Assembly (NCBI GenBank): GCA_038236005.1
Contig: JBBSTI010000003.1
Span: 1 to 58,661 of the forward strand
Direction of reading: 5' to 3'
Origin: Mycobacteriales bacterium
GTDB taxonomy: Bacteria; Actinomycetota; Actinomycetes; Mycobacteriales; SCTD01
Length of the DNA stretch: 58,661 bases
This document shows, piece after piece, positions 903-32,467 of this stretch (position 1 is the first letter of the stretch; every line of letters starts with the position of its first letter). Both the position numbers and the translations under genes were made by a program. Under the pieces are notes generated by a model. The model made no database searches. It was not told the origin of the DNA and saw nothing but the letters and a program-made list of their open reading frames with translations.

Positions 903-1025
903 GTACAGTCCGCTCGCTGGGCATCAGCCGACCTGGGGCCGGACCGCCGCACATCGCCGCGTTCCGGGAGTCGTTCTCCCCGCCAGGTGTCGCCAGGAAG
1001 TGCCTCTGCCAAAGGCCGTCCGATG
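903..1025 (+). ncRNA. structured 5'-UTR element, copy 1 (with -10 box and start codon)
   Basis: TACAGT-N6-GCTGGGCATCAGCCGACCTGGGG...CGCCAGGTGTCGCCAGGAAGTGCCT...AAAGG-N7-ATG; conserved in five copies. Confidence 0.7.
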
Positions 1026-1700
1026 TTCCTTGCTCGTCTCCTGCGTTCGTTGCGCACCCCGTCCCTGCGGCTGGGCCGTCCAGCTCGGCGCCATCGGTAC
1101 GTCGGCGCGTCGCGCCGAGGCTTGTTCCTCGCGATGGGGCTGCTTCTCGCGATGAGTCTCACGTCCCCGCCGGCGTCGGCGCACGGCGGTGAGGAGGGCG
1201 TTCAGGAGGGCTACGTCTTCGTGCAGCAGGCGCTGGGGCATCTGGCTGCTGACCCGGGCCCGACCGGGGTTGCCGCGGCCGAGGCCAAGGTGCAGGAGAT
1301 GCTGAGCGGACCGGATCAGGACGGGGTGGACGTCGCGCTCGTGGATCAGGCGCAGCAGGCGCTGACCGCCGGCCGACCGGCCGTGGCGCAGCAGGCGCTG
1401 CAGGAGTCGATCGCCGAGGCGGTCAGTGAGCTCGACCCGGCCTTCGGGGAGCAGACAGGAACCACCGTGGTTGGTGAGCCACTGGCTGGACGCGGATCGC
1501 TGGGCGGGACCGACTGGACGCTCGGTGGCCTGTCGCTGCTGCTGCTCGCCGTCGGCGTCGGCCTGGCGGTGTGGTTCCGGCCGGCGGAGAACATGGCTCA
1601 GCTGCGCCGGCGCCTCAACGCGACCCCGGCGACCGGGACGGACGCCAGCACGACCTCTGAACGCTTGCCCCTTCATCCCCAGGACGGACCGCAGCCATGA
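1023..1700 (+). CDS. exported protein with C-terminal TM anchor
   Basis: Signal-like N-terminus ending ASA/HGGEEG and a C-terminal hydrophobic helix; ATGA overlap with cytochrome b. Confidence 0.7.
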   Translation: MFLARLLRSLRTPSLRLGRPARRHRYVGASRRGLFLAMGLLLAMSLTSPPASAHGGEEGVQEGYVFVQQALGHLAADPGPTGVAAAEAKVQEMLSGPDQDGVDVALVDQAQQALTAGRPAVAQQALQESIAEAVSELDPAFGEQTGTTVVGEPLAGRGSLGGTDWTLGGLSLLLLAVGVGLAVWFRPAENMAQLRRRLNATPATGTDASTTSERLPLHPQDGPQP

Positions 1701-2785
1701 CCCGCGTCGAGGAACGGCCCGTCTCGTCACCTCCGACCCGAACACGTCGAGCGCTGGACGTCATCGACGAACGACTCGGGATCAGGGCGCTGGAATACCC
1801 CGTGCCCGAGCACGGCAACAAGCTGGCGTGGAGCCTGGGCGGGGTGACGGCCGTGTCACTGCTCATCCTGATCGTCACCGGAGTCATCCTGGTGCAGTTC
1901 TACAACCCGGTGCCCGAGGCCGCGAACGACTCGGTGCGCAACCTGGTGACCGACGTCTGGGGCGGTGGTTTCGTCCGCGGGGTGCACTTCTGGGCCGCGC
2001 AGGCCATGTATGTCACCGCGGCGCTGCACATGCTCAGGGTGTTTCTCACCGGGTCCTACAAGCGGCCGCGTGAGGCGAACTGGTTGATCGGGGTGGCCAT
2101 GTTCGGCCTGGTGACCCTCGCCCTGTTCACCGGCACCGTGCTCAAGTGGGACCAGGAGGGGTTCGAGGCGCTCGGGCACAACCTGGAGATCGGGAAGTTG
2201 CTCGGCGGGGTCGGGTTCTGGTTCTCCCCGACCTTCGCGGAGAACGTGCCGATCCTGGTCCGGCTCTACAGCGCCCACGTCGTCGTCATCCCCGGCCTGA
2301 TCCTGGTTCTGGCCACGCTGCACGCGTTGCTGGTCAAGAAGCACAAGATCTCCCCGCACCCGGCGCTGCCCAGCGAGGGCTCCGGCGAGCAGGCCCCCGC
2401 GGCCGAGCCCACCGAGCCGTTCACCCACCACCTGCGCCGGATCAGCTCGTTCGGTCTGGCGTTGCTCGGCGGCATCGGCCTGTTGGCCGTGCTGCTCCCG
2501 CCCGGGCTCGGCGCCCGTCCGGTGGCTGGGATCGAGGTCACTGAGCCGCCCCTGAACTTCTGGTGGCTCTACACCCTGGAGAACTGGTTCGGGCTCAACG
2601 CCATCGTCTACGGCGAGGGGGTCTTTTTCGGACTGCTGGTCCTCATCCCGTTCATCGACCGCAACCCGGAACGCTTCTGGCGTCGCCGCCCGGTCGCCAT
2701 GGCACTGCTGGTGCTGTTCCTCGCGGCCGTCATCGTCTTGACGATCCTGCTGAAGTTCCTCACCCCCGAGGTCCACCTCGGATGA
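1697..2785 (+). CDS. cytochrome b/b6-family protein (PetB/QcrB-like)
   Basis: RGVHFW, LHMLRVFLTGSYKRPREANW and RLYSAHV...LHA motifs; four heme His present. Confidence 0.9.
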   Translation: MTRVEERPVSSPPTRTRRALDVIDERLGIRALEYPVPEHGNKLAWSLGGVTAVSLLILIVTGVILVQFYNPVPEAANDSVRNLVTDVWGGGFVRGVHFWAAQAMYVTAALHMLRVFLTGSYKRPREANWLIGVAMFGLVTLALFTGTVLKWDQEGFEALGHNLEIGKLLGGVGFWFSPTFAENVPILVRLYSAHVVVIPGLILVLATLHALLVKKHKISPHPALPSEGSGEQAPAAEPTEPFTHHLRRISSFGLALLGGIGLLAVLLPPGLGARPVAGIEVTEPPLNFWWLYTLENWFGLNAIVYGEGVFFGLLVLIPFIDRNPERFWRRRPVAMALLVLFLAAVIVLTILLKFLTPEVHLG

Positions 2786-3024
2786 GCAGCACCGAGCCAC
2801 GTCGAGCCCAGCCCAACGTCGCCCGAGCCCGACGCGCGCTCTGGGTCCTGATCAGCGTCGCCGTCCTGGCCCTGGGCTCGCTCGCCAGCGCCCTGACCAG
2901 GGCGCCCAGTGCGCTGACCGGGCTCACCGTCGCCGCGTCAGGTGTCCTGCTGCTGACCGCAACCCTCCTGGCGGCCCGCGTCATCGCAGCGCTGGAGCAG
3001 CGCCGGCGACGGGAGCCGGCGTGA
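2782..3024 (+). CDS. small two-TM membrane protein
   Basis: ATGA overlap with the cytochrome b stop; two hydrophobic segments. Confidence 0.65.
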   Translation: MSSTEPRRAQPNVARARRALWVLISVAVLALGSLASALTRAPSALTGLTVAASGVLLLTATLLAARVIAALEQRRRREPA

Positions 3025-3052
3025 ACACCGAACAACGCGGCGGAGGGCACTC

Positions 3053-3322
3053 ATGACGAACGGATCAGCAGCCACGACAAAGAGCATCGTCGAAGTAGGC
3101 GGGATGCTTTCGGCGCTGAGCGCGCGAGGAGTCGAGAAGCAGCTCAGAAAGCTACCGGGGATCGACAAGGCTGAGGTCAACTACGTCACCGGCAGCGCAA
3201 CCGTGACCCACGACAACCGGGTCAGCCTCGCGGACATCACAGCGAGGGTCCGGGCGTGCGGCTATCACTGCAGAGGTGAGCAGCTGCCGAAGCATGTGTG
3301 TGCGGCGGTCACCGATCAGTGA
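3053..3322 (+). CDS. HMA-fold protein lacking CxxC, with a C-terminal CGYHC...KHVC motif
   Basis: GGAGG SD; HMA pattern VEVGGMLSALSARGVEKQL..LPGI..AEVNY..GSATV. Confidence 0.75.
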   Translation: MTNGSAATTKSIVEVGGMLSALSARGVEKQLRKLPGIDKAEVNYVTGSATVTHDNRVSLADITARVRACGYHCRGEQLPKHVCAAVTDQ

Positions 3323-3405
3323 CGGCCAGATGGGCGACGGCCGGCTGGCCAGCTGGCCGGAGCTCCAGCCAGACGGGCGGACGATGAAGCTGCCGGAGGA
3401 GAGAG

Positions 3406-5865
3406 ATGAAAACTAGTGTGATCGAGGTCCCGGACAGGCTGTCTGTGCTGGACCTGGACGACGTTGAATCGCGGATCGGCTTGGTGCCGGGCGTCGAGAG
3501 CGTGACGATGGACCACGCTGCCAGAAGCGTCACGGTGCGGTACGACGACACCCTGCTCAAGGATGGCGACATCACGTCAGCCATGAACCAGGGCCAGGTC
3601 GAGCCCGGAACGGCCACCGAGAACAGCGACGGACCTCAGGGCGCATCCGGGCCGGACATGGCGCCCGGGACCGCGGCTCCGGCCGCGACGTTGGAAGCTG
3701 TCCCCACTTCCTCCGAGACGGACGATGCGCCTGCGACGCCCGGAGCCGCCACTGCCGGGGGCCACGCTGCGCCCGACGGCGCACCGGCGAAGTCAGCCGA
3801 GATGGCAGAGGAGATGGGTCACGGCGACGGCATGGACCTACCGACCATGGTCCGCAACATGCGTAATCGCTTCTGGATCGCCCTGGTGTTCAGCCTCCCG
3901 ATCCTGGTGTACGCCCCGATCGGTCTGTTCACGTCGCCCGCACCGCCCTTCGGTCTTGACCTGAACCTCTGGCTGTTCTTCTTCGCGACGGCGGCCGTCG
4001 TCTATCCGAGCTGGCCCTTCTTCGTCGCGGCCTGGCACGCGCTCAGGAACGGTGTGCTGAACATGGCGGTGCTGGTCGTGCTGTCCGTGGGCATCGGCTA
4101 CCTGTACAGCGTCGGAGCGACCTTCCTTTTCGACAGCGAGCAGTTCTACGAAGCCGTTGCCCTTCTGCTGATCTTCATCCTGCTTGGTCACTGGCTCGAG
4201 ATGCGCGCCCGCTCCGGGGCCTCGACCGCGATCACGGCGCTGATGGACCTGGCCCCGCCGAAGGCCAATGTCCTCCGGGCTGGAAAAGAGGTCGAGGTGT
4301 CGACCGCCGACGTGGTGGCCGGCGACATCGTGGTGATCCGACCGGGTAACAAGATCCCGGTCGACGGCACCGTCGAGCAGGGCGAGTCGCTGGTCGACGA
4401 GTCGATGCTCACCGGCGAGTCGATGCCGGTCCAGAAGAACCCTGGGGACACGGTGATCGGTGCGACGATCAACATCAGCGGCAGCTTCCGCTACGAGGCC
4501 ACCAAGGTGGGCGCCGACACCGCGCTGGCACAGATCGTGAATCTGGTGAAGCAGGCGCAGAACTCCAAGGCCCCGTCGCAGCTGCTCGCGGACAGAGCCG
4601 CCCAGTGGCTCGTCATCGCCGCGATCGTCATCGGTCTGGCAACGTTTTCGTTCTGGTTCTGGGGGACCGGAGAACCGCTGCTGTTCGCGGTGTCGCTGAC
4701 CATCACCGTCTTCGTCATCGCTTGCCCTGATGCCCTGGGGCTCGCCACGCCGATGGCGGTCATGATCGGCACCGGGATGGGCGCCTCCAACGGCATCCTG
4801 TTCAAGAATGCCTCCGCGCTGGAGGACGCCACCCGGCTCGACGCCATCGTTTTCGACAAGACCGGGACCCTCACCATCGGCAAGCCGCAGGTGGTGGAGA
4901 TGGTGACGGCAGAAGGGACCACGGACGACGCGCTGCTGCTCGCCGCCGCCGCTGTCGAACAGGGATCGGCCCACCCGCTCGCGCAGGCGATCCTCTCCCG
5001 AGCCTCGGAGCTCTCCGTCGTTGCGCCGACCGGGTTCAAGAGCATCAGCGGCATGGGCGCGCAAGCGCAAACTGCTGACGGCACCGTGTTTCTGGGCAAT
5101 CGCCTGCTCATGGACACGCAGAACCTCGAACTGGGGGCACTCGAGACCGAGGCCACCCGACTGCAGGACGAAGGCCGAACCGTGGTCCATGTCGCCCAGA
5201 ACGGTCTGGTCATCGGCCTCATCGCCATCGCGGACAAGGCGCGTCCGACCGCCAAGGCCGCCGTCGCCAAGCTGCGTGAGCGTGGTCTCGAGGTCATCAT
5301 GCTGACCGGCGACAACGCGGGCACCGCCAAGCGGATCGCCGCCGACCTCGGTATCGAGAGCGTTCTGGCCGACGTGCTACCGGGCCAGAAGGCAGACAAG
5401 GTCAAGGAGCTCCAAGCCACCGGCAAGAAGGTCGGGATGGTCGGCGACGGGGTCAACGATGCGCCGGCACTCACCCAGGCAGATGTTGGCTTCGCCATCG
5501 GCGCCGGAACGGACGTAGCGGTGGAGAGCGCCGACGTCGTGCTGATGAAGAGTGACCCGTACGACATCGTCGCCTCCATCGACCTGTCGAAGGTCACCCT
5601 GCGCAAGATGCACCAGAACCTCTCCTGGGCGGTGGGCTACAACGTGCTGGCGTTCCCGATCGCGGCCGGCGTCCTCTTCCCGTTCGTGATCAGCCCCGCG
5701 GTCGCCGCGCTGTCGATGTCGGGCAGCACCTTGATCGTCGCCGTCAACGCCCTGCTGATGAAGCGCACGAAGCTGGCGGCCAGGCCTGGGCCTGGCGAAC
5801 CGACGAACCAGGCAGCGGCCCCTGCAGCCGAGACCACGACGGCGGAGAGCGCGGCGGTTGTCTGA
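3406..5865 (+). CDS. heavy-metal (probably Cu) P1B-type ATPase, CPD variant
   Basis: [30 protein letters not shown] and MSGST motifs; degenerate N-terminal HMA. Confidence 0.92.
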
Positions 5866-7210: not shown

Positions 7211-9739
7211 TCAGCTGGCGCGCTGCGGCTCGACCGGCATCTCGAGCGCCTGCGGTTGACCGCCTGAGGTGCCTTTGACGGGATCAAGGACGCGGTAGGC
7301 GAGGAGCTTGACGCGGTCGCTGGCGAGGGCCCAGACAAGCGCGTAGCCCCAGACGAACGCTGCCCACCCCCAACCGAGGGGCGTCATGAACAATCCGTAC
7401 ACGGCGATCAGGGTGGCGATCGCCTGCGTGCCGAGGACGGCAATGAGCAGGATCCCGGCGGGGCGGATCGACCAGAACGGCCCGCGGGTGCGGGCGAGGA
7501 AGATCGTGAGGTGCCCGGCGACGGACAGCAGCAGATACATCATGGTCTGCAACCGGGGGCGGTCGAGGCCGAAGACGAGGTCACCGAGCGAGAACAGTCC
7601 GAAGGCGGCGATCGGGCCGACAATGCCGAGCACGGTCGAGATGCCGAGCACCAGGCGCATGTTCCAGACCTCGGGCTCCATCCGATAGCGGACGTTGTCG
7701 TAGGCGATGGACAAGATCGCGCCGTCGTTGAGCAGCGCGAGCATGACGATCATGATGGCGGTGACCGGGTAGACGTTGTAGACCAGGATCGCCCCCGTGA
7801 TGAACAGCAGCACGCGCAGCGTCTCCGCGATGCGGTAGATCGCGTAGGAGTTCATCCGCGCGAAGATCTTGCGACTCTCCTGGATAGCGTCGATGATGAC
7901 CGACAGGCCCGGTGTGAGCAGCACGATCGCGGCCGCTGCGCGGGCGGCGTCGGTGGCACCGGAGACGGCGATGCCGCAGTCGGCCTTCTTCAAGGCCGGC
8001 GCGTCGTTGACGCCGTCACCGGTCATGCCGACGATGTGGCCGCGCTGTTGCAGCACCTCCACGATGTGGTACTTGTGCTCGGGGAAGACCTGCGCGAAGC
8101 CGTCTGCACCCTCGATGGACTCGGCGACGGCCGTGCTCTCCTGCTTGTTCACGTCGTCCAGACCGGCCGCATCCAGGATGTTCGCGCCCAGGCCGACCTT
8201 CTCGGCGGTTTCTCTCGCGATCGCGATCGCGTCGCCCGTGACCATCTTCACGCTCACGCCCATCGCGGCGGCGGCGGCGATGGTCGAAGCGGCATCCTCG
8301 CGTGGCGGGTCGAACAGCGGCAGCACGCCAAGGAACCGCCACCGTCCGTCGGGCTCGGCGCGGGCCACGCCCAACGCTCGAAAGCCCCGGGCGGCGAAGT
8401 CGTTGACAGCGGTGTCGACGGCCGAGGCGATCGTCGCTGCGTCGTCCGCCAGAGCGAGGATGACTTGCGGGGCGCCCTTGGTGACCGTGAACGTCGCCCC
8501 GTCGTTGCCGGTGACGGCGGCCTCGGTGCGCTTGGACACCGGATCGAACGGCTCGAAGTGGGTGACCGTGTATTCGTCCAGGTCCTTGGGGTCACTCATC
8601 CCGGACAGGACGGCGAGGTCGATGGGGTCGTTGTTGTCGGCTCGGGAGGCCAGCGCACCGGCGAGCACGACCGCGTCAGCGGTCCCGTCGCCGATGCTGA
8701 ACACCTCGCCTAGTGTCAGCGAGTTCTGGGTCAGCGTGCCGGTCTTGTCGGCGCACAGCACGTCCACGCCGGCGAGCTCCTCGATCGCCACGAGCTTGCT
8801 GACGATGGCCTTCTTTTTCGCCATCAGCCGGGCGCCGACCGCCATCGTCACCGATAGCACCGTGGGCAGCGCGACCGGGATCGCGGCGACGGTCAGCACC
8901 AGGGCGAACTGCAGCGTCGTCAGCAGCTCGTCGCCGCGTAGGAGCGACACCACCACGATCACGGTCACCAGCGCGACCGCGAGCACGATGAGGTAGTTGC
9001 CGATCGTCAGGACAGCCTTCTGGAAGTGGCTGACCGTGTGTGCGTCCTGCACGAGCTCGGCCGTCTTGCCGAAGTAGGTGTCGGTGCCGGTGGCGTAGAC
9101 CACGGCGCCGATCTCTCCCCGCCGTACGACCGAGCCGGAGAACACCGCGTCCCCGGCCTCAGAGGTCACCGGCAGCGACTCGCCGGTGAGGGCAGACTGG
9201 TCCACCTCGATCTCGTCGCCCTCCAGCAGCCGGGCGTCGGCGGGCACGATGTCACCGAGCCGCAGGCGGATGACGTCTCCGGGCACCAGCTCACGGGCAG
9301 CCGGTGTGGTCCACTCGCCGTCGCGTCTGACCCGGGCATTGACCGCCAGCTTGCCCTTCAACGCGTCGATGGCGTTGCCGGCCTGGCGTTCTTCGGTGAA
9401 GCCGACGACGGCATTAGCCAGAAGCAGCACCAGGATGATGAAAAAGTCGGCCCAGTGACCCACGGCGCCGGACAGGATCACCGCAATCTCGATCATCCAC
9501 GGGATCGGTCCCCAGAAGTAGGACAGGAATTTCAAGAGCGGGTTGGTCTTGTGCTCGGCCATCTCGTTCGGGCCGTACGTCGTCAGCCGCTCCGCCGCTT
9601 CGACCTGCGTGAGCCCGTCCCCCGAGCTGTCGAGCTGCTTCCATACCTCGACCATCGGTAGCGTTTTCAGGCCGTCTGGCGACGGTTGCTGATCCTGTGA
9701 CGACGGATTGTCCTGCACCTCGGTCGATCTTGTGGTCAT
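7211..9739 (-). CDS. plasma-membrane proton-efflux P-type ATPase (P3A, PMA1-like)
   Basis: YGPNE, FWGPIPWMIE, IPVALPTVLSVTMAVG, CADKTGTLT, FAQVFPEHK and LLNDG..LSIAYD motifs. Confidence 0.93.
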   Translation of the reverse strand: MTTRSTEVQDNPSSQDQQPSPDGLKTLPMVEVWKQLDSSGDGLTQVEAAERLTTYGPNEMAEHKTNPLLKFLSYFWGPIPWMIEIAVILSGAVGHWADFFIILVLLLANAVVGFTEERQAGNAIDALKGKLAVNARVRRDGEWTTPAARELVPGDVIRLRLGDIVPADARLLEGDEIEVDQSALTGESLPVTSEAGDAVFSGSVVRRGEIGAVVYATGTDTYFGKTAELVQDAHTVSHFQKAVLTIGNYLIVLAVALVTVIVVVSLLRGDELLTTLQFALVLTVAAIPVALPTVLSVTMAVGARLMAKKKAIVSKLVAIEELAGVDVLCADKTGTLTQNSLTLGEVFSIGDGTADAVVLAGALASRADNNDPIDLAVLSGMSDPKDLDEYTVTHFEPFDPVSKRTEAAVTGNDGATFTVTKGAPQVILALADDAATIASAVDTAVNDFAARGFRALGVARAEPDGRWRFLGVLPLFDPPREDAASTIAAAAAMGVSVKMVTGDAIAIARETAEKVGLGANILDAAGLDDVNKQESTAVAESIEGADGFAQVFPEHKYHIVEVLQQRGHIVGMTGDGVNDAPALKKADCGIAVSGATDAARAAAAIVLLTPGLSVIIDAIQESRKIFARMNSYAIYRIAETLRVLLFITGAILVYNVYPVTAIMIVMLALLNDGAILSIAYDNVRYRMEPEVWNMRLVLGISTVLGIVGPIAAFGLFSLGDLVFGLDRPRLQTMMYLLLSVAGHLTIFLARTRGPFWSIRPAGILLIAVLGTQAIATLIAVYGLFMTPLGWGWAAFVWGYALVWALASDRVKLLAYRVLDPVKGTSGGQPQALEMPVEPQRAS

Positions 9740-9864
9740 CAGACTCTTTCCCCCGCGCTGCGTCGCGGCGCGTGCTGTGCGAGCGGGCAGGGACTGAGCT
9801 GTTCGATCATGTCGTGACCGGACGACGGTCCGGATCGCTGCCAGATGGTGAGCAGACGTGGCAT
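9739..9864 (-). CDS. 41-aa leader ORF from element copy 2, coupled by TGATG to the H+-ATPase
   Basis: MPRLLTIWQRSGPSSGHDMIEQLSPCPLAQHAPRRSAGERV*; the TGA overlaps the ATPase ATG. Confidence 0.5.
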   Translation of the reverse strand: MPRLLTIWQRSGPSSGHDMIEQLSPCPLAQHAPRRSAGERV

Positions 9865-9988
9865 CGGGGGGCCTTGTCGGAGGCGCTTTCCTGGCGATAC
9901 CTGGCGGGGAGAGAACACCTCTCGAGAGCGCGGCCCAGAGGCGGCGATCCGACCCCAGGTCGGCTGATGCCCAGCGCGCTGACTGTAC
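9862..9988 (-). ncRNA. structured 5'-UTR element, copy 2
   Basis: TACAGT-N6-GCTGGGCATCAGCCGACCTGGGGTCGG...CGCCAGGTATCGCCAGGAAAGCGCCT...AAGG-N7-ATG. Confidence 0.7.
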
Positions 9989-10120
9989 GCGCCGCCGCCC
10001 TGTGGGTCGAGAGCCGGCTGCGCCCCTCGCGACGGGGCACCGTCAGGGCCGAGACACCGGGCCTGTCAGACATCCTCGAGCACGTTGACGCGGCTCCCGT
10101 GCGGAGCTGGGCGGGTCGGC

Positions 10121-10242
10121 GTACTTTCCCCTGCTGGGAATCAGCCCACCTGGGGTCGAAGCGTCGCTGAATCGCCGCGCTCCGTGAGAAGTTTCTCTAC
10201 CGTCAGGTTTCGCCGGGAAGTGCCTTTCTAAGGCCCGTCATG
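10121..10242 (+). ncRNA. structured 5'-UTR element, copy 3
   Basis: TACTTT-N5-GCTGGGAATCAGCCCACCTGGGGTCG...CGTCAGGTTTCGCCGGGAAGTGCCTT...AAGG-N6-ATG. Confidence 0.65.
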
Positions 10243-10635
10243 TCCCGTCACGTCCTCCGGGCAGAGAACCGCGACCAAGACGCCGGACCGGCCCGGCCAC
10301 CAAGCGCCAGCTCGCCCGCAGCGGGTCTGTCCGGGTCGTGTCGTACGTGCTTGAGCGCGCGCACCCCGCAGGCCAGCCCCGTGCCGCCGAGAAGCACCGG
10401 GCCTTCGGTCGGTCGGGCGACGTACGCAGGCGCGCCGATCAGCCGCGGCCGGCACCTGGCCGTCGCCGTCCGCGGCGATGTTCCCGCTCCTGCTGGTTTC
10501 GAGGAGCTGTACCTGCGTTTCGACCCGGTCCCGGGCACCGGGATGAGCTGTGCGTGGGCGTTCCCGACCGTGCACAGCACGGTCAACGTGGCTTCGGGCA
10601 GACCGGTCCGGCCACCAGCAAGGCATGGCTGGTGA
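10240..10635 (+). CDS. hypothetical protein starting at element copy 3
   Basis: The ATG is at the conserved position of the element; no recognisable domain. Confidence 0.3.
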   Translation: MSRHVLRAENRDQDAGPARPPSASSPAAGLSGSCRTCLSARTPQASPVPPRSTGPSVGRATYAGAPISRGRHLAVAVRGDVPAPAGFEELYLRFDPVPGTGMSCAWAFPTVHSTVNVASGRPVRPPARHGW

Positions 10636-10994
10636 ACCGGGCGGCCGAGCTGCTGCCTGGCTTCGCGGTCGGGTCCACCCGAGCCCCGACGCGGGCGATC
10701 GCTACAGCCGGGAGATGCGGGCCAGGTTCGGGCGTCACCATCGACAGCTGGGCGCCTTCTCCAGACTGATGGACCGACCACGAGTGGTCGAGGTGGCCGT
10801 GCGTGCCTGCGGAAACGACGAACGCCTTCTGCGACGTTTCCTGTCAGTCGGCCTCGGTGACGGCACCGTCGGCGTCGGCGACCTGGCCCGCTTTGCCGCC
10901 GCCATCCGTCCCCGGGTCAGGTGTCCCGGTGATGCGCCCGATCGAGCGCAGCTCCGTCCCCACGATCTCCACGTCGATGAGTCGGGTCGTCACC

Positions 10995-11010
10995 AGGGTC
11001 TTTGGTCCCT
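10995..11010. promoter_or_regulatory. DosR/DevR-like box
   Basis: AGGGTCTTTGGTCCCT, about 145 bp upstream of the ABC ATPase start. Confidence 0.5.
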
Positions 11011-11155
11011 TCGATGCGAGGCCATCGCCTCTGACCCCTCGTCGCCGTCCGAGGCACTGTGGCAGGAATCCGTGTGGAGCCGAATCATCGCCAGATGCTT
11101 GCGGGGCGTACCCAGCGAACAGGAGCTCGGCCATGAACCCGACCGGCAGGCGAGG

Positions 11156-11845
11156 ATGACCGCCCTGGTGACCACGGCCGTCACGACGGCGCCGGCCGAC
11201 GACGGTGCAAGCCAGCCGGTGCTGCAGGCGTCGGCCATCACCAAGGCCTATCGACGCGGCATCTGGCCACGACGCCGCACCGACCAGATCCTGACCGGCG
11301 CGGACCTCACCCTTCACCCCGGCGAGGTGGTCGGGCTGGTCGGGGAGAACGGCTCGGGCAAGTCCACCCTGATGAAGATCCTGGTCGGTGCCCTCGCCGC
11401 CGACGCAGGCACCGTCACCTACGGGGGCCGGCTGGGCTATTGCCCGCAGGAACCCTTGGTGTATCCGAGGCTGACGTGCAACGAGCACTTCGACCTGTTC
11501 GGCCGCGCCTACGCCATGACCGACGGGGCGACGGCCCAGTCTCGGCAGGAGATCTACGAGGCGCTCGGTTTCGACCGCTACGCCAACACCCGGGCCGATC
11601 AGCTCTCCGGCGGCACCCTGGCCAAGCTCAACCTCGGCCTGGCTCTGCTGCCGGACCCCGACCTGCTCCTGCTCGACGAACCCTCGGCCGGTTTCGACTG
11701 GGACACGTACCTCAAGTTCTGGGACCTGGTCGCGCAACGGCGCACGGCCGGCCGAGCGGTGCTGATCATCAGCCATTTCGTGGTCGACGAAGAGCGTTTC
11801 GACCGCATCGTGGCGGTGCGGCACGGCAAGACCGGACCGAAGTGA
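11156..11845 (+). CDS. ABC transporter ATP-binding protein
   Basis: GENGSGKS, LSGG, LLLLDEP and SH motifs; the start is uncertain. Confidence 0.9.
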   Translation: MTALVTTAVTTAPADDGASQPVLQASAITKAYRRGIWPRRRTDQILTGADLTLHPGEVVGLVGENGSGKSTLMKILVGALAADAGTVTYGGRLGYCPQEPLVYPRLTCNEHFDLFGRAYAMTDGATAQSRQEIYEALGFDRYANTRADQLSGGTLAKLNLGLALLPDPDLLLLDEPSAGFDWDTYLKFWDLVAQRRTAGRAVLIISHFVVDEERFDRIVAVRHGKTGPK

Positions 11846-20507: not shown

Positions 20508-21175
20508 GCCGCGTCCACTGCTGACGAGCCCTCTCGCCGTCGACAGGCCTGCATCGGACCGCTGAAGTGGACGTAGACCAGAAGGCTCAGGACCGCGGCG
20601 TAGAAGCACCACACCGACACGAAAGTCTTGATCGAGACGACAGCTGCGACGACGGCCAGAACAAAGGCCAGCACCCCGAACACCTTGATGCACCAGTGGC
20701 TCGAGAAGAGCCCGCTGATGCAGGTCGCCGTCAGATATCCGACGAGCACTGCGGCGAGGTAGAAGTGCGGTGAGTCGTACGCGACGCTGTCCCCTCTGAC
20801 CCTCGCGGTCACCGGGAAGCGCACGATGAAGAAGAGCAGGTACAGCCCTACGGACAGCCCGAGGACGACGAAGGCGCTGAGCACCCTTCTCCGCCAGATC
20901 CGAGGCTCCACCAGCAAAATCGCGAAGGGTATGAGGATGGGCCACACCACGTGGGAAAACATGGAGTAGAGGTAGGTCGCCCACGTCTGCAGCACGGGCA
21001 GGTCGCGGCCCAGGCTCACCCATACGGCCCCTTCCGTGATCTGCTGCAGGCCGAAGAGCAGCGGGACCAACGCAAGGGGCAGCTCGCGCGCGCCCCTCGA
21101 CTTTCGCAGGGTGAGCACTCCCACCACGGCGAGGGTCGTGCCGGCCGTGAAGCTGGCGGTCGGCGAGAAACACAT
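20504..21175 (-). CDS. multi-TM membrane protein with MCFS.TASF N-terminus (DUF6629-like)
   Basis: GGAAGGA SD; QQITEG..W and SVWCF.AA motifs; about 7 TM helices. Confidence 0.75.
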   Translation of the reverse strand: MCFSPTASFTAGTTLAVVGVLTLRKSRGARELPLALVPLLFGLQQITEGAVWVSLGRDLPVLQTWATYLYSMFSHVVWPILIPFAILLVEPRIWRRRVLSAFVVLGLSVGLYLLFFIVRFPVTARVRGDSVAYDSPHFYLAAVLVGYLTATCISGLFSSHWCIKVFGVLAFVLAVVAAVVSIKTFVSVWCFYAAVLSLLVYVHFSGPMQACRRREGSSAVDAA

Positions 21176-21262
21176 GTTTCGATTCCTTCCGCAACCGTCA
21201 GCGGGAGCTCAGGTTCAGAGGACCCGGCCGGCCCTTTCTCCTGCACACCTGCTCGGTCGCCC

Positions 21263-22636
21263 TCACATGTCCATGGTTTGGTCTGGGCGGGTGTGCGAGT
21301 GCATGAAGAGTCGCTCGCCGAGAACGATGAGCAGGATGCCGCCGCCGGCGGCGTACAGGCTGAGGGCGTCGGCGGAGGCCTTGACCCAGACGAAGGCGCC
21401 GAGCACCACGAGGTCGAGGACGATGGCAGTCACGACGATGGCTGGCTTGAACGCCACGCGGGTCCGAAGGTGGCGAAGCAGACCCCAATGGATGGCGATG
21501 TCCATCAGGAGGTAGTAGATCGCACCGAGGGCCGCGATGCGGCGCAGGTCCAACGTCGCGGTCAGGGCCATGGCGAACGCGACGGTGTAGACGGTGGCGT
21601 GGATGCGCACGCCGCCGGGCATGGCGAAGTGGCGGTGCGGGACCTGCTTGAGGTGGGTGAGCATGCCGAGCATGCGGGAGGCGGCGAACACGCTGGCCAT
21701 GACCCCGGAGGCCGTCGCGACCACGGCCAGCACCACGGTGAACCAGACGCCACTGTCACCGAACGCCGGTCGGGCCGCCTCGGCGAGGGAGAAGTCCTCG
21801 GCGGCGATGATCTCCGGGAGGGTGAGGTTTCCGGCCACGGCAGCCGCGATGGCCAGGTAGACGACACTGCAGATGGCTAGCGAGATCATGATGGCCCGGC
21901 CGGTGTTGCGATGCGGATCGACGATCTCGCCGCCGCTGTTCGCGACCGTGGTGAACCCCTTGTAGGCAAGGATGGCCAGGGCGACCGCGGCCAAGAAGCC
22001 CTCGGGCGAGACGTCGATGCCCGCGCTGGCTGTGCCGTTGGTGAAGTTGGCGGCCTCGACCAACCACAGACCGGCGACGGCGAACAGCCCGAGACCAAGA
22101 ATTTTGATCGCGGCCATGAATCGTTGCGAGGCCTGGACGGCCTTGTTACCGGCGATGATGACGACGAACGCGGCGGCGAGAAGTCCGACCCCCAGGGCGG
22201 GCACCCAGAACGCAGCCGGCTCCAGACCGATGATCTGCAGCACGTACGACCCGAAGGTGCGGGCTACCAGGCTCTCGCTGATCACCATCGAGACATACAT
22301 GAGGATCGCGAACACCCCGGCTGTCGTGCCGGGACCGTACTGCTCACGGAGAAACACCGCGATGCCCCCCGAAGACGGGTAGACACCAGCGAGCTTGACG
22401 TAGGAGTAGGCACTGAACCCGACCACGATCGCAGCGACGACGAACGCGAACGGGAACAGGTCGCCGGCGAGACGAGCGGTCTGACCGGTGAGAGCGAAGA
22501 TTCCGGCGCCGATCATCACACCGGTCCCGAGCGCTACCGCCCCCGACAGGCTCAGGCTGCCCGGTACGTCCTCGGGCGACTGCTCATCGGTCGCACCGGG
22601 ACCGTCCTGCCTGTCAGCCACGTTGTTCAGCAGCAC
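21263..22636 (-). CDS. APC-family amino acid permease
   Basis: GVMIGAGIF, PSSGG and AYKGF motifs, 12 TM helices. The start may be the GTG at 22621. Confidence 0.9.
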   Translation of the reverse strand: MLLNNVADRQDGPGATDEQSPEDVPGSLSLSGAVALGTGVMIGAGIFALTGQTARLAGDLFPFAFVVAAIVVGFSAYSYVKLAGVYPSSGGIAVFLREQYGPGTTAGVFAILMYVSMVISESLVARTFGSYVLQIIGLEPAAFWVPALGVGLLAAAFVVIIAGNKAVQASQRFMAAIKILGLGLFAVAGLWLVEAANFTNGTASAGIDVSPEGFLAAVALAILAYKGFTTVANSGGEIVDPHRNTGRAIMISLAICSVVYLAIAAAVAGNLTLPEIIAAEDFSLAEAARPAFGDSGVWFTVVLAVVATASGVMASVFAASRMLGMLTHLKQVPHRHFAMPGGVRIHATVYTVAFAMALTATLDLRRIAALGAIYYLLMDIAIHWGLLRHLRTRVAFKPAIVVTAIVLDLVVLGAFVWVKASADALSLYAAGGGILLIVLGERLFMHSHTRPDQTMDM

Positions 22637-22730
22637 GTCGCAGCGGTGAGCAGCAGCGAGCCGCGGCGGTCATCGACCCGGTCCACGCGTCGCGAGACCC
22701 ACCAGGTGGGGGCCAACAGAGAGGCAGCAT
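22614..22730 (-). CDS. 38-aa leader ORF from element copy 4, overlapping the permease start
   Basis: MLPLCWPPPGGSRDAWTGSMTAAARCCSPLRRAAEQRG*; the stop lies within GTGGCTGA at the candidate permease GTG (22621). Confidence 0.4.
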   Translation of the reverse strand: MLPLCWPPPGGSRDAWTGSMTAAARCCSPLRRAAEQRG

Positions 22731-22847
22731 CGATCAGCCTTGGAATCGCACTTCCTGGTGGCACCTGGCGGAGAAGGATATTAAGAGCGCGGCCTTACGG
22801 CGGCGCTCCGACCCCAGGTCGGCTGATGCCCAGCGAGCAAACCGTAC
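22728..22847 (-). ncRNA. structured 5'-UTR element, copy 4
   Basis: TACGGT-N6-GCTGGGCATCAGCCGACCTGGGGTCGGAGCGCCGCCGTAAGGCCGCGCTC...CGCCAGGTGCCACCAGGAAGTGC...AAGG-N7-ATG; GTAA (GNRA) tetraloop. Confidence 0.7.
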
Positions 22848-22892
22848 GCGCACCGGCCACGATCGGCAAAGAACGAACCAGCCGCGAGCCGT

Positions 22893-23066: not shown

Positions 23067-25832
23067 ATGAGCGGTAGCGACGTACTGGTCGTTGTTGGTG
23101 CCATGTTCTTGACCGGCCTCTTGGGGTGGTTCTTCTTCGGCCCGAAGAAGTCCCGGCGGGCTGATCTCGATGGCGGCGTGCAGAGCATCCGGGTGACGGT
23201 GAAGGGCGGGTACAGCCCGGACGTCATCCAGGTCACGCGTGGGGTGCCCGTTCGGCTGCTGTTCGACCGGCAGGAGTCCGGGGACTGCTCCTCACGCGTG
23301 GTCCTGCCCGACTTTCAGATCAATCAGCCGTTGCCGGCGTATGCCACCACGGCGGTCGACTTTGTTCCCGAACAAGCCGGGGACTATGAGTTTGCCTGCG
23401 GGATGAACATGATCCGTGGCCGGCTGCAGGTCGTGCAGGGTGACGGACCCAGCCGTGCCGCCTCGGTCGGGGTTGCTGCAGCGAGCGGGGACGGCGCTGC
23501 GGAGCCGGTGCCGACCGACCCGGACGGGCCGTCTGGAGCCGCAGACCCGGTGGGTGCGCTCGCCGGCGTGGACACGGCGGAAGCCGAGGAACGGGAGCGC
23601 AAGGCCGAGATCTCGGACCTGACCCGACGGGTGGTCTCCGGTGCGGTGCTCACGGCGCCGGTCCTGTTCGCGGTCATGCTGGTGGAGTTCTTCGGGGCCG
23701 CCTGGATGCCGGCACTGCTGACGGATCGCTGGTTCCAGCTGGCGCTGATCACACCGGTGATGTTCTACACCGGCTGGCCCATCCACCGCAGCGGGTGGCT
23801 GGCGATGTCGCACCGCACCGCGGACATGAACTCCCTGATCACGTTGGGCACGATCGCGGCGTACGGCTACAGCCTGGTGGTGACGTTCGTCCCGACGGCG
23901 CTGCCTGCCAGCGTCCAGGCGGTCTACTACGAGGCCGTCGGGGTGATCATCACCTTGATCCTGCTCGGACGGCTGTTCGAGACCAAGGCCAAGGCCGGCA
24001 CCGGTGAGGCGATCCGCACGCTGATCGGGCTGCAGCCCCGTACGGCCCGGGTCGTCCGCGACGGCCAGGAGGTAGAGGTGGACATCGACGACGTCCTGGT
24101 GGCCGACGTCGTGGTGGTGCGGCCCGGTGAGAAGCTGCCGGTGGACGGCCAGGTCGTCGAAGGCCGCTCCGCGGTCGACGAGTCGATGGTCACCGGCGAG
24201 CCGATCCCGGTGGTCAAGACCCCCGGAGACATCGTCATCGGGGCCACGATCAACCAGACCGGGTCTTTCCGCTACGAGGCCACCAAGATCGGCGCAGACA
24301 CCATGCTCGCGCAGATCATCAAGCTGGTCCGTCAGGCACAGGGTTCCAAGGCCCCGATCCAGCGCCTTGCCGACCAGGTCTCCAGCTTCTTCGTCCCGGC
24401 CGTGATCGGCCTGGCGATCTGGACCTTCGTGGTGTGGACGCTGCTCGGACCCTCGCCGGCGTTCATCTTCGCCCTCGTCGCGGCCGTGTCCGTGCTCGTG
24501 ATCGCCTGCCCGTGCGCGCTCGGACTGGCGACCCCGTTGTCGATCACGGTCGGCACCGGCAAGGGCGCGACTGCCGGCATCCTGATCCGCTCCGCGGAGG
24601 CCCTGGAGACCGCGCACAAGCTTGACACGATCGTGCTCGACAAGACCGGCACGATCACCGAGGGCACTCCGGCCCTCACCGACGTCCTGCCGGTCACCGG
24701 CTTCACCGCCGACGAGGTCCTGGCGCTGGTGGCCTCGGTCGAGGCTTCCTCCGAGCACCCGCTGGCCACGGCGATCGTCGCGGGGGCTCGGCAACGCACG
24801 CTGACCTTCCCGCCGGCCACCGCTTTCGACTCGATCACCGGTCAGGGCGTGCGTGCCCTGGTCGGTGGCAGGGAGGTGCTGGTCGGCAACCGGCGACTGC
24901 TGGCCGCTGCTGGCATCGACGACGACCCCCTCAGCGCGGACAGCGAGCGGCTCGCCGCAGACGGCAAGACCCCCATGCTGGTCGCCGTCGACGGGCGCGC
25001 CGCCGCAGTCATCGGGGTCGCCGACACCGTCAAGGCCGGCTCGGCCGGGGCGGTGGCCGCCCTGCACGCCCGGGGCATCGAGGTGGTCATGATGACCGGT
25101 GACAACCGGTTGACCGCCACCGCGATCGCCCGCCAGGTCGGCATCCGGCGGGTCCTGGCCGAGGTGATGCCAGAGCACAAGGCCGCAGAGGTTCGGCGGC
25201 TGCAGGCCGAAGGGCGGGTCGTCGGCATGGTCGGCGACGGCATCAACGACGCCCCCGCCTTGGCCCAGGCCGACGTCGGCTCCGCCATCGGCACCGGCAC
25301 GGACGTCGCCATCGAGTCCTCCGACCTCACCCTGATCTCCGGCGCCCTCTCCGGCCTGGTGACCGCCATCGACCTGTCCCGGGCCACCATGCGCAACATC
25401 CGGCAGAACCTGGTGTTCGCGTTCCTCTACAACGGGATCGGCATCCCGATCGCTGCCGGTGTGCTCTACCCGTCGTTCGGCATCACGCTGAGCCCGATGA
25501 TCGCAGCGGGCGCCATGGCGCTGTCGTCTCTTTCCGTCGTCGCGAACGCCAACCGGCTGCGCGGCTTCACCCCCACCGTCATCCCTGACAACGTCCGAGC
25601 GGAAGCCACCGACCCGGTGGTGGAGATCGGGCACGACGAACCGAAGGAGAACCTCATGGCCCACGAGACACAGCTGGTGACCGATCCGGTTTGCGGCATG
25701 AGCATCGACCCGGAGGCTGCGGCCAGCAGCACCGAGCACGCCGGCCAGACCTACTACTTCTGTTCCCCGAGCTGCGCCCAGACTTTTGCCGCGGACCCCG
25801 AAGCGCAGACCTCGGCAGCCAGGGCCACCTGA
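23067..25832 (+). CDS. Cu+ P1B-1 ATPase with an N-terminal CupA-like cupredoxin and a C-terminal YHS domain
   Basis: GGYSP..GDC..FACGMNM; CPC, DKTGT, YN and MALSS motifs; DPVCGM..YYFCS..C. Confidence 0.93.
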
Positions 25833-25875: not shown

Positions 25876-25908
25876 TTCCTCTGCCAGGTGTCAGGGTGGA
25901 TAGCGCGA

Positions 25909-26343
25909 CTACGTCCTCTCTGGTGAGTCGACGGAGGAGGGATAGGGATACAGGTAGCTGGCGCCCCAATAGGGTTCGTAGCCGTAGTGGTCAAAGACGC
26001 TGGCGTGGTAGGGCCGGTTGTCGACGAGGTCGGGGGCGTAGCCCGGGCTCGAAGCGACCCGGTCGCCTGACTGGTCGATCTCGACGTCTTGCTCGGTGAT
26101 CTTCGTGACGGCGTCGACGGGGATGAGCGTCTTCGTCCTCCCGAACCCGAGGACCCCGCCGTGCTCGACGAGCAGGAACCGGATCTTGCTCTCCTGGTCG
26201 TCGACGAGCAGGTCAGACACCGTGCCGAGACGGATGCCGTCCTTGTCCCTCACGGTGCGGCCGCGGACGTCGTTGGCCGGTCCGTCGACCGTCATGCCGC
26301 GGTCGCCCAGGGTGTAGATGGTGGCGTTGTCGTGGAGAGTCAT
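25909..26343 (-). CDS. PRC-barrel domain protein
   Basis: DVRGRTVRDKDG..LGTVSDLLVD...RFLLVEHGG.LGFG and YGY.PYW motifs. Confidence 0.88.
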   Translation of the reverse strand: MTLHDNATIYTLGDRGMTVDGPANDVRGRTVRDKDGIRLGTVSDLLVDDQESKIRFLLVEHGGVLGFGRTKTLIPVDAVTKITEQDVEIDQSGDRVASSPGYAPDLVDNRPYHASVFDHYGYEPYWGASYLYPYPSSVDSPERT

Positions 26344-30970: not shown

Positions 30971-30986
30971 GATCCTCCCGGTCTGC

Positions 30987-31022
30987 GGGTCTTTCGGCCC
31001 ACGGTGTCGGTCAGAAGGTCCC
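30987..31022. promoter_or_regulatory. tandem DosR/DevR-like boxes
   Basis: GGGTCTTTCGGCCC and GGTCAGAAGGTCCC, 22 bp centre to centre. Confidence 0.5.
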
Positions 31023-31253
31023 TGGTCCCGGTGATGGCGACGGTGGTCGGCACAGCGGCACAGCGGCACAGCGCTCCGAGCACCGACGCTGGGCCACGGG
31101 CGCCCGTCCAGCCGGGGACCGCTGGCTGGCGGCGAAGACGGGCAGCCGATGAGCGTGATCCGGCGGCACGCCAGGGCTGGCGCGTGAACTGCGCCGTCGT
31201 CGTCGTCGACGACGACGGCGGGCTGGTCGCCCCCCCGATCCAGCAGCGCCACG

Positions 31254-32020
31254 ATGCGCCGCACCCGGATCGGTGTGATGGGCGTTGCGGCGCTGCTCCT
31301 GACTGAGGCTCGTGGGCGCGCCAGCACGGCCACGGACCGCCGCCCGACCTTCCCGTCGACCTGCTGGTGCGCCCACCCGCCGGGATTCCCTTCGTCGGCC
31401 GCCCGTACCGTCTCGCGGCGCTCGGCGACTCCGGCATGAGCGGGGTCGGAGCCGGCGACCTCGACGGTGTGTTGTCGGGACAGGTGGCGCAGCGCCTCGC
31501 CGTAGCCCTCGACAGGTCGGTCCACGTGACCAGCTCTGCGCGGGCCGGGGCGCGCACCGCCGATGTCCTACGCGAGCACGTTCCGCGACTCACGGCGGCT
31601 GACGGTGTGGTCCTGCTGGTGGGGACCAACGACTTCGTGCACCGGACCCCGCTGCCCGTCCTGCGCAGGCAGACCGCCGCGCTGCTCGATGCGTTGGTCG
31701 CAGCCGGCGCGCCCGTGACGATGTCAAGCCTGCCGGAGTTCCGGGCGATGCGCCTGCTGCCCCGTCCGCTGCGCGACACCGTGTCGGCATACGCGCGCGT
31801 GATCAACGCGATGCAGCGTGGACAGGCCGCGTCGCGCCCGACCGTCCAGCTGGTCGACGTGCGCCGACACGCCGGTCCTGCGTTTCTGCGCCAGCCCGCC
31901 GCCATGAGCGCGGACGGCTTCCACCCGTCCCGTCTCGGCTACGCGCTCATCGCGGACGCGCTCGCTCCCGTGGTTGCTGCGACGAGCAGGGCCCCGATAG
32001 TGACAGACGTCTCCTCCTGA
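31254..32020 (+). pseudogene. SGNH/GDSL hydrolase with an apparent 1-nt frameshift near 31314
   Basis: The N-terminal anchor MRRTRIGVMGVAALLLTEAR is in one frame. The catalytic part (GDS, GTND, DGFHP) is in another frame that has a stop at 31306. Confidence 0.65.
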
Positions 32021-32103
32021 GGAGGACCTCCGCCTCTACTACGTCGCGTAGGCGTGGGTCAGTCTTACTGTGTACCGCCGCCGGCGATCTGAAGGAGCAT
32101 CCG

Positions 32104-32313
32104 ATGAACATGGGCATGAAACCCCGCCACCTGGTCCTAGCCGCTGTCGGTGTCGGTGCCCTCTATGCGCTCGGCGTCTCAGCAGGGACCTTGATCTTCG
32201 TGGTCGCGCTGGCTTACATGGCCTCCATGCACCTCGGCCACCGCGGCGGTCACGGCGGTGACGGCGGGCAGCTGCCGAGCAAGCTGTCGTCCCGTCGCCC
32301 CGGCAAGCAATGA
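32104..32313 (+). CDS. small two-TM His/Gly-tailed membrane protein (DUF2933-like)
   Basis: AAGGAG SD; YMASMHLGHRGGHGG; same architecture as 524..802. Confidence 0.6.
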   Translation: MNMGMKPRHLVLAAVGVGALYALGVSAGTLIFVVALAYMASMHLGHRGGHGGDGGQLPSKLSSRRPGKQ

Positions 32314-32363
32314 TCTGGCTGTAGCTGGCATCAACATCGCGCAAGAGCGGAAACGCCGGATGC

Positions 32364-32467
32364 GCATCAGCCGACCTGGGTCGAAGCGCCGCCTCGGTCG
32401 CGCTCCGCGAGTCTCCCTCTCTGCCAGGTGTCGCCAGGAAGTGCCTTTTTCAAAGGCCCCCCGGATC
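32364..32467 (+). ncRNA. structured 5'-UTR element, copy 5 (lacks the -10 box and the ATG)
   Basis: GCATCAGCCGACCTGGGTCGAAGCGCCGC...TGCCAGGTGTCGCCAGGAAGTGCCTTT-TTC-AAAGGC; ends in GGATC instead of GATG. Confidence 0.6.

Follow-up and report, generated by a model that had tools for sequence, protein, structure and literature searches.

A Covarying Three-Way-Junction Leader RNA of Actinomycetes Is Genomically Linked to Genes Encoding a GAF-ANTAR Regulator

We analyzed a 58,661-nt stretch of DNA from a Mycobacteriales bacterium (assembly GCA_038236005.1, contig JBBSTI010000003.1, positions 1 to 58,661 of the forward strand; this whole 58.7-kb stretch is referred to as the window), in which five copies of a shared element had been predicted to be structured RNAs in the 5′ untranslated regions (5′ UTRs) of ion and metal transport operons. 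The element very probably represents a genuine family of cis-regulatory leader RNAs. It folds into a 5′ hairpin (P1), a three-way junction (P2/P3/P4), and a separate hairpin (P5) over the Shine-Dalgarno (SD) sequence, and it lies between a promoter and a start codon. Because the folded leader adjoins, in related genomes, the gene of one RNA-binding regulator with GAF and ANTAR domains, it probably controls the translation of these messages. With moderate confidence, we favor the reading that the leader is a noncanonical target of this GAF-ANTAR regulator, which would act on the translation of a stress, dormancy, and ion transport regulon.

RESULTS

The fold of the leader is supported by covariation

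The conserved part of the element has the consensus (U)GCUG-RGNNN-CAGCC-R-(P2 5′ strand)-RN-(P3 5′ strand)-GCCGC-loop of 3 to 13 nt-GYYGC-(P3 3′ strand)-GAGC-loop-GCUC-A-CCGC-(P2 3′ strand). It is followed by a linker, an anti-SD strand, a loop, the SD sequence, and, 5 to 8 nt further, the start codon. Two alignments were used: one of 18 sequences (A3), which were the matches of covariance model R1 and gave rise to model R2, and one of 52 distinct sequences (A5), to which the counts below refer unless stated otherwise. Compensatory changes occurred at 22 of the 30 modeled pairs, in 217 cells, and at 18 of the 30 when the first 18 sequences were considered. Paired cells made up 87.7%, compared with 34 to 46% when the partners were slid by 1 to 3 columns, and 0 of 500 shuffles reached any of the observed covariation measures. 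Among the 18 sequences, P2 appears as ACCUGG/CCAGGU, CCCGG/CCGGG, or GUCGGG/CCCGAC, with like changes in P3 and P5.

Since the 52-sequence alignment is fitted to the model, we added an alignment-independent test that takes only column ranges and compares the duplex energy of a sequence's own strands with that of strands swapped between sequences. P2 (z −11.8), P3 (z −11.0), and the anti-SD/SD pair (z −5.7) were clearly recovered, and no other pair stood out. P4, left out of the model, still folds as a hairpin of at least 3 bp in 49 of the 52 sequences. P2, P3, P4, and the SD hairpin, all predicted from the five copies, are kept by compensatory changes in the homologues of other genomes. The helices contain many G-U pairs; therefore, the strand is fixed and the constraint acts on RNA. 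Single-sequence folding energies were no better than those of shuffled sequences (z +0.4 to +1.1; copy 4, z −1.1), so it is the homologues, rather than the five copies by themselves, that carry the case for structure.

Other parts of the fold hardly vary. P1 is nearly invariant (GC in 49 sequences, GU in 3, and similar), with one compensatory replacement by A-U; its loop is 5 nt long in 41 of the 52 sequences and holds a near-invariant G (48/52). The central position of GCCGC/GYYGC, a mismatch within P3, is pyrimidine-pyrimidine in all 52.

No covarying competing pairing was found in the homologues

The original prediction had suggested a switch in which CCUGG has competing partners. This idea is weakly supported, because we found no covarying alternative helix beyond the known ones; the best values among 66 strand and loop comparisons were z −2.5 to −1.9. 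The P2 5′ strand scored z −1.9 against the linker with the second CCAGG, versus z −11.8 for P2 itself, and the second CCAGG (CCNGG) is missing from many homologues. The other proposed competitor, a local CCGACC/GGUCGG hairpin, is particular to copies of the window type, since its GGUCGG half is the P3 5′ strand, which covaries. We also compared the loops of P1, P3, P4, and P5, the J4/2 strand, the linker, and the tail, and detected no pseudoknot or kissing loop beyond the known extension of P5; the loop-pair energy table holds some artifact values from infeasible duplexes. Judged from these comparisons, P5 over the SD sequence acts as a module of its own.

Three further candidates were dropped. 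In single-sequence folds of the window copies, the P1 loop GGCAU pairs with the start-codon sequence AUGCC, but just 12 of the 52 P1 loops end in CAU, so this was not kept as a family feature. An alternation of GGUGA after P2 between UCACC (the P4 3′ strand plus J4/2) and the CACC before AUG gave z −0.4 for the linker versus P4. A DosR-like DNA palindrome in CCGACC..GGTCGG was rejected since it is not kept in the homologues.

The family is absent from Rfam and fronts stress-type genes

None of the 4,227 models of Rfam 15 matched anywhere in the window at the gathering threshold, and at E ≤ 10 the segments 850 to 1100 and 9800 to 10300 gave chance matches only, of 10 to 16 bits, to eukaryotic or archaeal families. 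A hammerhead or other small ribozyme, also considered, had no Rfam match. In the literature, we found no paper on the motif and none joining ANTAR with a three-way junction, or a structured leader RNA with SPFH or P-type ATPase genes in Actinobacteria; some of the ~1228 actinobacterial ANTAR RNAs predicted in PMC8164766 might overlap the element, which bears on its novelty.

Covariance-model searches of relatives uncovered homologues in 24 genomes of the same class. Model R1 gave weaker matches in 8 of 61 genomes of relatives. With model R2, the element turned up in 13 of the 78 family genomes, in 9 of 151 sampled at the level of the order, and in 6 of 151 at that of the class, each count including the window's own genome (G000), and in 0 of 150 other genomes in a phylum-wide sample. 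These large RNA searches used strict filters, and weak members were missed. The family search revealed up to 12 copies per genome, often clustered. A loose pattern, GCTGRNNNNCAGCN{16,19}GYCGCN{3,9}GYYGC, was scanned over 596 Gb of genome contigs; among the 80 pattern loci listed, there was one weak covariance-model match (30.6 bits, E 0.003).

When we tabulated the downstream genes, the predicted association with ion and metal transport operons held for the window but not for the family, in which other genes are commonest. A gene for an SPFH/Band 7 protein comes first behind nine elements (assigned by Pfam for one and by near-identical N termini for the rest), often followed by YflT and P-type ATPase genes, and the first gene is phosphoketolase behind three elements and acetate kinase behind one. 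The other downstream genes encode P-type ATPases, cytochrome b operons, PRC-barrel proteins, YflT, GAF-SpoIIE phosphatases, a HisKA_3 kinase, DUF4389, DUF6629, an SDR protein, a pyridine-nucleotide disulfide oxidoreductase, an MCRA-family protein, ABC ATPases, and an alpha/beta hydrolase. Going by these annotations, the common theme of the downstream genes is stress, dormancy, and the envelope. The SPFH-type copies are 78 to 96% identical across four genomes, and orthologous leaders front orthologous genes in different genera.

The leader is linked to GAF-ANTAR genes

Beside the elements, we found a recurrent open reading frame (ORF) of ~245 aa, first met in two different families, in which Pfam recognizes GAF_2 and ANTAR domains. 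A PDB sequence search with the orthologue returned only the NasR ANTAR domain (4akk, E 0.0023). The elements often form divergent pairs ~0.9 to 2.3 kb apart, and the GAF-ANTAR protein is encoded between the two members at L017, L025, L027, L029, L033, L175, and L180 and beside single elements at L181 and L042. The recurrent order is the SPFH operon, its left-pointing element, the GAF-ANTAR gene, a right-pointing element, and a gene for a small protein or YflT. With a profile of seven such proteins, a GAF-ANTAR gene was found within the ±1.5-kb locus of 29 of the 52 elements. The window's own genome holds six ANTAR genes in 3.4 Mb, and we therefore estimate that a random 3-kb stretch holds an ANTAR gene well under 1% of the time.

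A protein search in the family was bimodal, with at least 54% identity in 16 of 78 genomes and at most 46% in the others, and 11 of the 13 RNA-positive family genomes were among the sixteen with the orthologue. The two exceptions, G000 and G001, belong to the window's genus, and both are incomplete; in G001, two tandem, more diverged GAF-ANTAR genes end 84 nt before its element. Outside the family, an orthologue of at least 51% identity was present in 10 of the 11 RNA-positive genomes and lay within 4 kb of an element in nine.

Starting from the protein, we found an RNA match beside the orthologue in 12 of 12 loci, in a second locus set clearly in 3 of 5 with 1 more marginal, and in the order sample in 9 of 14 loci, mostly divergent at ~100 to 400 nt. 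Five orthologue-positive genomes were RNA-negative under the strict search. Three of them had weak matches in the same divergent position (18.6 to 24 bits), one had a marginal match (E 0.078), and in one the locus is cut by the contig end. At L205, the element directly precedes the GAF-ANTAR gene, which can therefore itself be a target.

Two side observations concern these neighborhoods. In the window's own genome, a contig (G000:C12:1-1137; L183, L206) starts inside a cut ANTAR domain that is followed by a GAF-containing open frame; the tandem arrangement is like that upstream of the G001 element, with ~35% identity and no element within 1.6 kb. In two genomes from different families, the element on the right of the GAF-ANTAR gene is immediately followed by the gene of a conserved protein of ~77 aa (...YARE.S.G.WQVKVH.P...; L181:5315-5548 [+] and L027:1610-1843 [+], the former without a Pfam match).

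The leader lies between a promoter and a start codon

Most of 35 upstream regions of 60 bases each contain a TTGACA-like −35 box, a 16- to 18-nt spacer, and a TANNNT or CANNNT −10 box. As the −10 box ends 5 to 7 nt before P1, the transcript is predicted to start at or just before P1. At the other end, the SD hairpin covers the SD sequence just before the start codon, a codon that copy 5 of the window has lost. An SD-like motif lies 3 to 13 nt before the start codon in 43 of the 51 elements with enough flank, although this is a rough count, as the script sometimes picks an internal or premature GTG. That the element ends at the SD sequence and start codon fits control of translation.

In the homologues, the start codon next to the SD sequence belongs either to the main gene or to a short ORF (8 to 60 codons) that often overlaps the main start, e.g., at L030 and L021, where an 8-codon ORF overlaps the phosphoketolase start. 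Such overlapping short ORFs, which occur behind copies 2 and 4 of the window and in many homologues, suggest that the leader ORFs are translationally coupled to the main genes.

Copies in the window

By reading and aligning the sequence, we located the five copies at 915-1029(+), 9858-9976(-), 10132-10247(+), 22724-22835(-), and 32358-32470(+), essentially at the coordinates first claimed, as elements of ~115 nt that are each oriented toward the downstream gene. Their alignment has 57 invariant columns and a mean column identity of 71%, and alignability is lost on the 5′ side of the TACNNT box and past the start codon. The consensus had also been given correctly: TACNNT, 5 to 6 nt, GCTGGG...CAGCC, ACCTGG/CCAGGT, GCCGC...GCCGC, tandem CCAGG, GCCT...AAGGC, 5 to 6 nt, and ATG. 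The features of the copies are as follows.

904 to 1025 (+), copy 1: −10 box TACAGT 904-909; P1 916-928; P2 931-938 with 980-988; P3 939-967; P4 968-979; SD hairpin 996-1021; ATG 1023-1025; 121.7 bits with R1 and 99.8 bits with R2
9862 to 9987 (-), copy 2: −10 box TACAGT 9987-9982; P1 9975-9963; P2 9960-9953 with 9907-9899; P3 9952-9922; P4 9921-9908; SD hairpin 9891-9866; ATG 9864-9862
10122 to 10242 (+), copy 3, divergent from copy 2: −10 box TACTTT 10122-10127; P1 10133-10145; P2 10148-10155 with 10200-10208; P3 10156-10185; P4 10186-10199; SD hairpin 10216-10239; ATG 10240-10242
22728 to 22869 (-), copy 4: −35 box TTGCCG 22869-22864; 17-nt spacer; −10 box TACGGT 22846-22841; P1 22834-22822; P2 22819-22812 with 22771-22763; P3 22811-22782; no P4 hairpin; SD hairpin 22755-22732; ATG 22730-22728
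32358 to 32470 (+), copy 5: P1 altered (GAUGCGCAUCAGC; GAUG.. for GCUG..); no upstream TANNNT box; SD hairpin kept; no ATG or GTG at the usual place (GGATCC versus CGATGC)

Copy 4 has no P4, and in copies 1 and 5 this hairpin is weak; the loss in copy 4 and the reduction in copy 5 had been foreseen, and the weakness in copy 1 is an addition. Copy 5 is probably decayed, as its −10 box and start codon are gone and its P1 is altered. It is immediately followed, at 32479-32515, by 2.5 copies of a perfect 15-bp tandem repeat (GTTGCTCCCGTCGTG).

The assembly of the window's genome comprises 3.42 Mb in 227 contigs, with a GC content of 72%, 82% completeness, and 4.6% estimated contamination. Across all of it, nhmmer with a five-copy profile found the five copies (89 to 96 bits) and one weak extra match, and model R1 gave the five window copies as the only strong matches (103 to 122 bits), all inside a 32-kb span of one contig. 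Another contig carries a sixth, diverged copy (G000:C99:8865-8981 [-]; 35.8 bits with R1 and 54 bits with R2). The window copies are on average 73% identical to each other, compared with 60% within G016 and 65% within G031. Together with the copy at locus L008, they form a subtype, mutually 68 to 80% identical, that fronts ion, metal, and transport operons.

Genes behind the copies and in the rest of the island

Pfam confirmed the gene calls behind the copies, which are as follows.

1023 to 5865 (+), operon behind copy 1: secreted-looking 225-aa unknown protein with a signal-like N terminus (1023-1700); cytochrome b (1697-2785); HMA protein (2957-3322); P1B-type ATPase (3406-5865)
7211 to 9864 (-), genes behind copy 2: 41-codon leader ORF (9864-9739), then P-type cation ATPase (7211-9739; E1-E2_ATPase, Cation_ATPase_N)
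10240 to 13404 (+), genes behind copy 3: 131-aa ORF with no Pfam match (10240-10635); ABC ATPase (10550-11845); ABC-2 membrane protein (within 11440-13404)
20504 to 22730 (-), genes behind copy 4: 38-codon leader ORF (22730-22614) overlapping the GTG (22636) of an APC amino acid permease (21263-22636); then DUF6629 (20504-21175)

The operon behind copy 1 has an orthologous arrangement with the same leader at L008. The earlier gene assignment needs one correction: copies 2 and 4 open first onto the 41- and 38-codon ORFs, not directly onto the transporter genes. In copy 2, the TGA of the leader ORF shares its A with the ATPase ATG at 9739 (TGATG overlap; ...GTCTGATGACC...), and in copy 4 the leader ORF ends 20 nt past the permease GTG. 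The GC content at the third codon positions of the two leader ORFs is only 0.73 and 0.61, respectively. After copy 5, the next convincing gene encodes a PRC-barrel protein (33185-33634), ~700 nt downstream.

The rest of the island encodes a phosphoketolase, a DeoC aldolase, a GH65+HAD protein, a second P1B ATPase with cupredoxin and YHS domains, a second PRC-barrel protein, an ABC1 kinase, G6PD, and an ion channel, a gene set that we take to resemble the dormancy and general-stress gene sets of actinobacteria. The second P1B ATPase (23067-25832 [+]; N-terminal cupredoxin-like and C-terminal YHS domains) and the second PRC-barrel gene (25909-26343 [-]) have no element in front. A small glycine-rich membrane protein (MKHKTHLYLMGG...; MNHNKYSYLM.. 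in relatives), encoded at 485-802 (+) of the window, L172:12567-12878 (-), and L179:873-1124 (-), recurs beside P1B ATPases in these islands. The window also contains a System-I cytochrome c maturation cluster (41508-46253 [-]; CcmF, CcmE, a CcmC-like protein, CcmB, and an ABC ATPase), which adjoins a DsbD_TM gene and a gene for a thioredoxin-like protein. Actinobacteria usually use System II for cytochrome c maturation, and the cluster may be unusual for an actinobacterium or a sign of transfer.

DISCUSSION

Proposed role of the leader

In the reading that we favor, a housekeeping-type promoter would drive transcription from a site a few bases downstream, and P1 and the three-way junction would form from the first ~90 nt. 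In a second module, the anti-SD strand would cover the SD sequence, 5 to 8 nt before the first gene or a coupled short leader ORF. The conserved 5′ domain would be the binding site of the GAF-ANTAR RNA-binding regulator, the GAF domain of which may sense a stress or redox signal, and whether the leader is bound or free would determine if the ribosome can open the SD hairpin. The RNA family, its fold, its place between promoter and start codon, and its linkage to the GAF-ANTAR subfamily are shown here; binding by the protein, the direction of control (repression or activation), and the signal are inferred. The outcome would be one post-transcriptional regulon comprising SPFH/YflT, PRC-barrel, and phosphoketolase/acetate kinase genes together with those for P-type ATPases, cytochrome b, and ABC and APC transporters. 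The original prediction had named a cis-regulator responding to an ion, pH, or a metabolite, or binding a protein; the leader RNA held up, and among the proposed effectors the evidence favors a protein, as a GAF+ANTAR gene is adjacent in most carriers. More specifically, the leader may represent a second, structurally unrelated class of ANTAR-responsive RNA in Actinomycetes, i.e., a ~90-nt junction leader with a two-fold-symmetric GCCGC/GYYGC helix that is read by a dedicated GAF-ANTAR sensor and controls a stress and dormancy regulon including GH65, a proposal on which we are evenly divided.

Several observations weigh against a GAF-ANTAR target. ANTAR genes are adjacent to the leader in relatives but not in the window's own genome: the 58.7-kb window contains no ANTAR gene, the best match to the orthologue in that genome is 35% identical (contig C39), and no element lies near any of its six ANTAR loci (best match 12 bits, E 0.86), so that the link is seen in relatives and not for the window's own copies. 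The missing orthologue is no proof of absence, because the assembly is only 82% complete. An ANTAR gene is lacking within 1.5 kb of 23 of the 52 elements, which, though expected for members of a regulon, is not support, 5 of the 14 orthologue loci of the order sample gave no RNA match, and G059 has the RNA without the orthologue. No covarying helix joins the conserved domain to the SD hairpin in the 52 sequences. The consensus fold lacks the tandem pair of hexaloop hairpins that defines ANTAR targets, and hexaloops with A1 and G4 are present in P1 of 3, P3 of 0, and P4 of 1 of the 52 sequences. Moreover, linkage as seen in genome sequences cannot separate a regulator from a co-inherited island gene.

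An alternative that we consider unlikely is a true riboswitch in which P1 and the three-way junction bind a small molecule or ion (a stress nucleotide, a metal, or protons at a C-C mismatch) and alter access to the SD sequence, the GAF-ANTAR gene being just another member of the regulated island. A conserved structured domain in a 5′ UTR that is backed by covariation is what riboswitches generally have, and this one is compact, shows strong conservation, and combines, as known aptamers do, covarying stems with invariant nucleotides. It occurs in many copies per genome before varied genes that share a theme, matches no Rfam family, and is followed by an SD hairpin that could act as an expression platform; the carriers without an ANTAR orthologue (the window's genome and G059) and the L205 element, in front of a GAF-ANTAR gene that can thus be a target, would also fit. 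However, we found no covarying alternative pairing between the would-be aptamer and the SD hairpin, and no single metabolite obviously unites the broad stress set that makes up the regulon. The invariance lies largely in helices (GCUG/CAGC, GCCGC/GYYGC, and GAGC/GCUC) with very short junction strands, which is more usual for protein sites, and the recurrent tight adjacency to the gene of an RNA-binding protein would be a coincidence. A ligand-independent leader seems less likely again, whether as a 5′ stabilizer or ribosome stand-by structure with a heat-melting SD hairpin or as the site of another trans factor (small RNA, RNase, or protein). Hairpins at the 5′ end protect mRNAs, P1 is at the extreme 5′ end, the SD hairpin is self-contained, and heat- or stress-type proteins (YflT and SPFH) are among the downstream products. 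A generic stabilizer or thermometer needs neither a sequence-invariant three-way junction nor a pyrimidine-pyrimidine mismatch kept across families, however, and would leave the ANTAR linkage unexplained. The loops showed no covarying complementarity to one another or to the linker.

Finally, the element could be a feature of the DNA, i.e., an operator for a DNA-binding repressor that overlaps the transcription start (the GCTG-N5-CAGC palindrome) or a miniature inverted-repeat transposable element (MITE) spread within the island. P1 hardly varies, and the window copies, all within 32 kb, are more alike (73%) than those within G016 or G031. But P2 to P5 covary with G-U pairs that are meaningful only in RNA of a given strand, every copy points at a start codon at a fixed distance from the promoter, and orthologous copies are conserved before orthologous genes in different genera. 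The alignments show no terminal inverted repeats or target duplications, and the similarity stops at the −10 box and the start codon. The covariation and the strand-swap energies largely refute this explanation, which we regard as very improbable; the element is neither a protein repeat, as originally argued, nor a MITE and is instead a structured promoter-proximal 5′ leader RNA.

If the GAF-ANTAR reading is true, the leader would be the first RNA target, with a regulon, for the commonest actinobacterial ANTAR architecture, which has been without targets. The leader and the linked GAF-ANTAR subfamily would make a concrete protein-RNA pair that widens ANTAR recognition beyond the hexaloop hairpin, the sole known motif. 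It would also point to a translation-level regulon for stress, dormancy, and ion homeostasis whose promoters are of the housekeeping type, and transcriptomics would not see this layer. Should the protein link fail, there would still be an undescribed riboswitch-like family with an unusual conserved pyrimidine-pyrimidine mismatch. Either way, the family is new and fit for RNA databases.

Comparison with known systems

Ribosomal-protein leaders, PyrR sites, and the ribonucleic antiterminator (RAT) sites of BglG/LicT are structured leaders read by dedicated RNA-binding regulators through helices and internal mismatches. Their proteins, folds, and gene sets differ from those described here, and none of them was matched in the Rfam scans. 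Translational junction riboswitches, such as those for purines and thiamine pyrophosphate (TPP), resemble the leader in that a covarying multihelix domain is combined with an SD-occluding structure in several copies before related genes. They differ in that the leader has no Rfam riboswitch match, no detected mutually exclusive pairing, and very short junction strands.

The closest comparison is with the ANTAR-target RNAs. According to PMC8164766, these targets consist of two stem-loops with hexaloops bearing A1 and G4 and a linker of 2 to 25 nt, and many of those in actinobacteria overlap the ribosome-binding site; action on translation near this site is reported for actinobacterial targets (PMC8164766, 10.1101/660928). 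Hairpin loops are bound by ANTAR domains, which in mycobacteria are able to repress translation (10.1101/660928, PMC8164766, and PMC8934654). The last of these sources describes one hexaloop as the minimal site, with G4 flipped onto a tyrosine and sequence-independent stem contacts, and the flipped-out loop G as the key contact in the EutV complex. GAF-ANTAR is reported to be the commonest ANTAR architecture in mycobacteria and other actinobacteria, with RNA targets and signals uncharacterized and individual systems still to be studied (bioRxiv 10.1101/660928). In contrast to the canonical targets, the conserved part of our leader is a hairpin plus a three-way junction of ~90 nt with an invariant mismatched helix, it conserves the sequence of its stems, whereas those of canonical targets are sequence independent, and its SD hairpin is a separate module. 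On the other hand, like the EutV, AmiR, NasR, and Rv1626-type targets, it is a leader element, probably cis-acting, that often has an ANTAR gene adjacent, and the loop of its small P1 hairpin has a near-invariant G.

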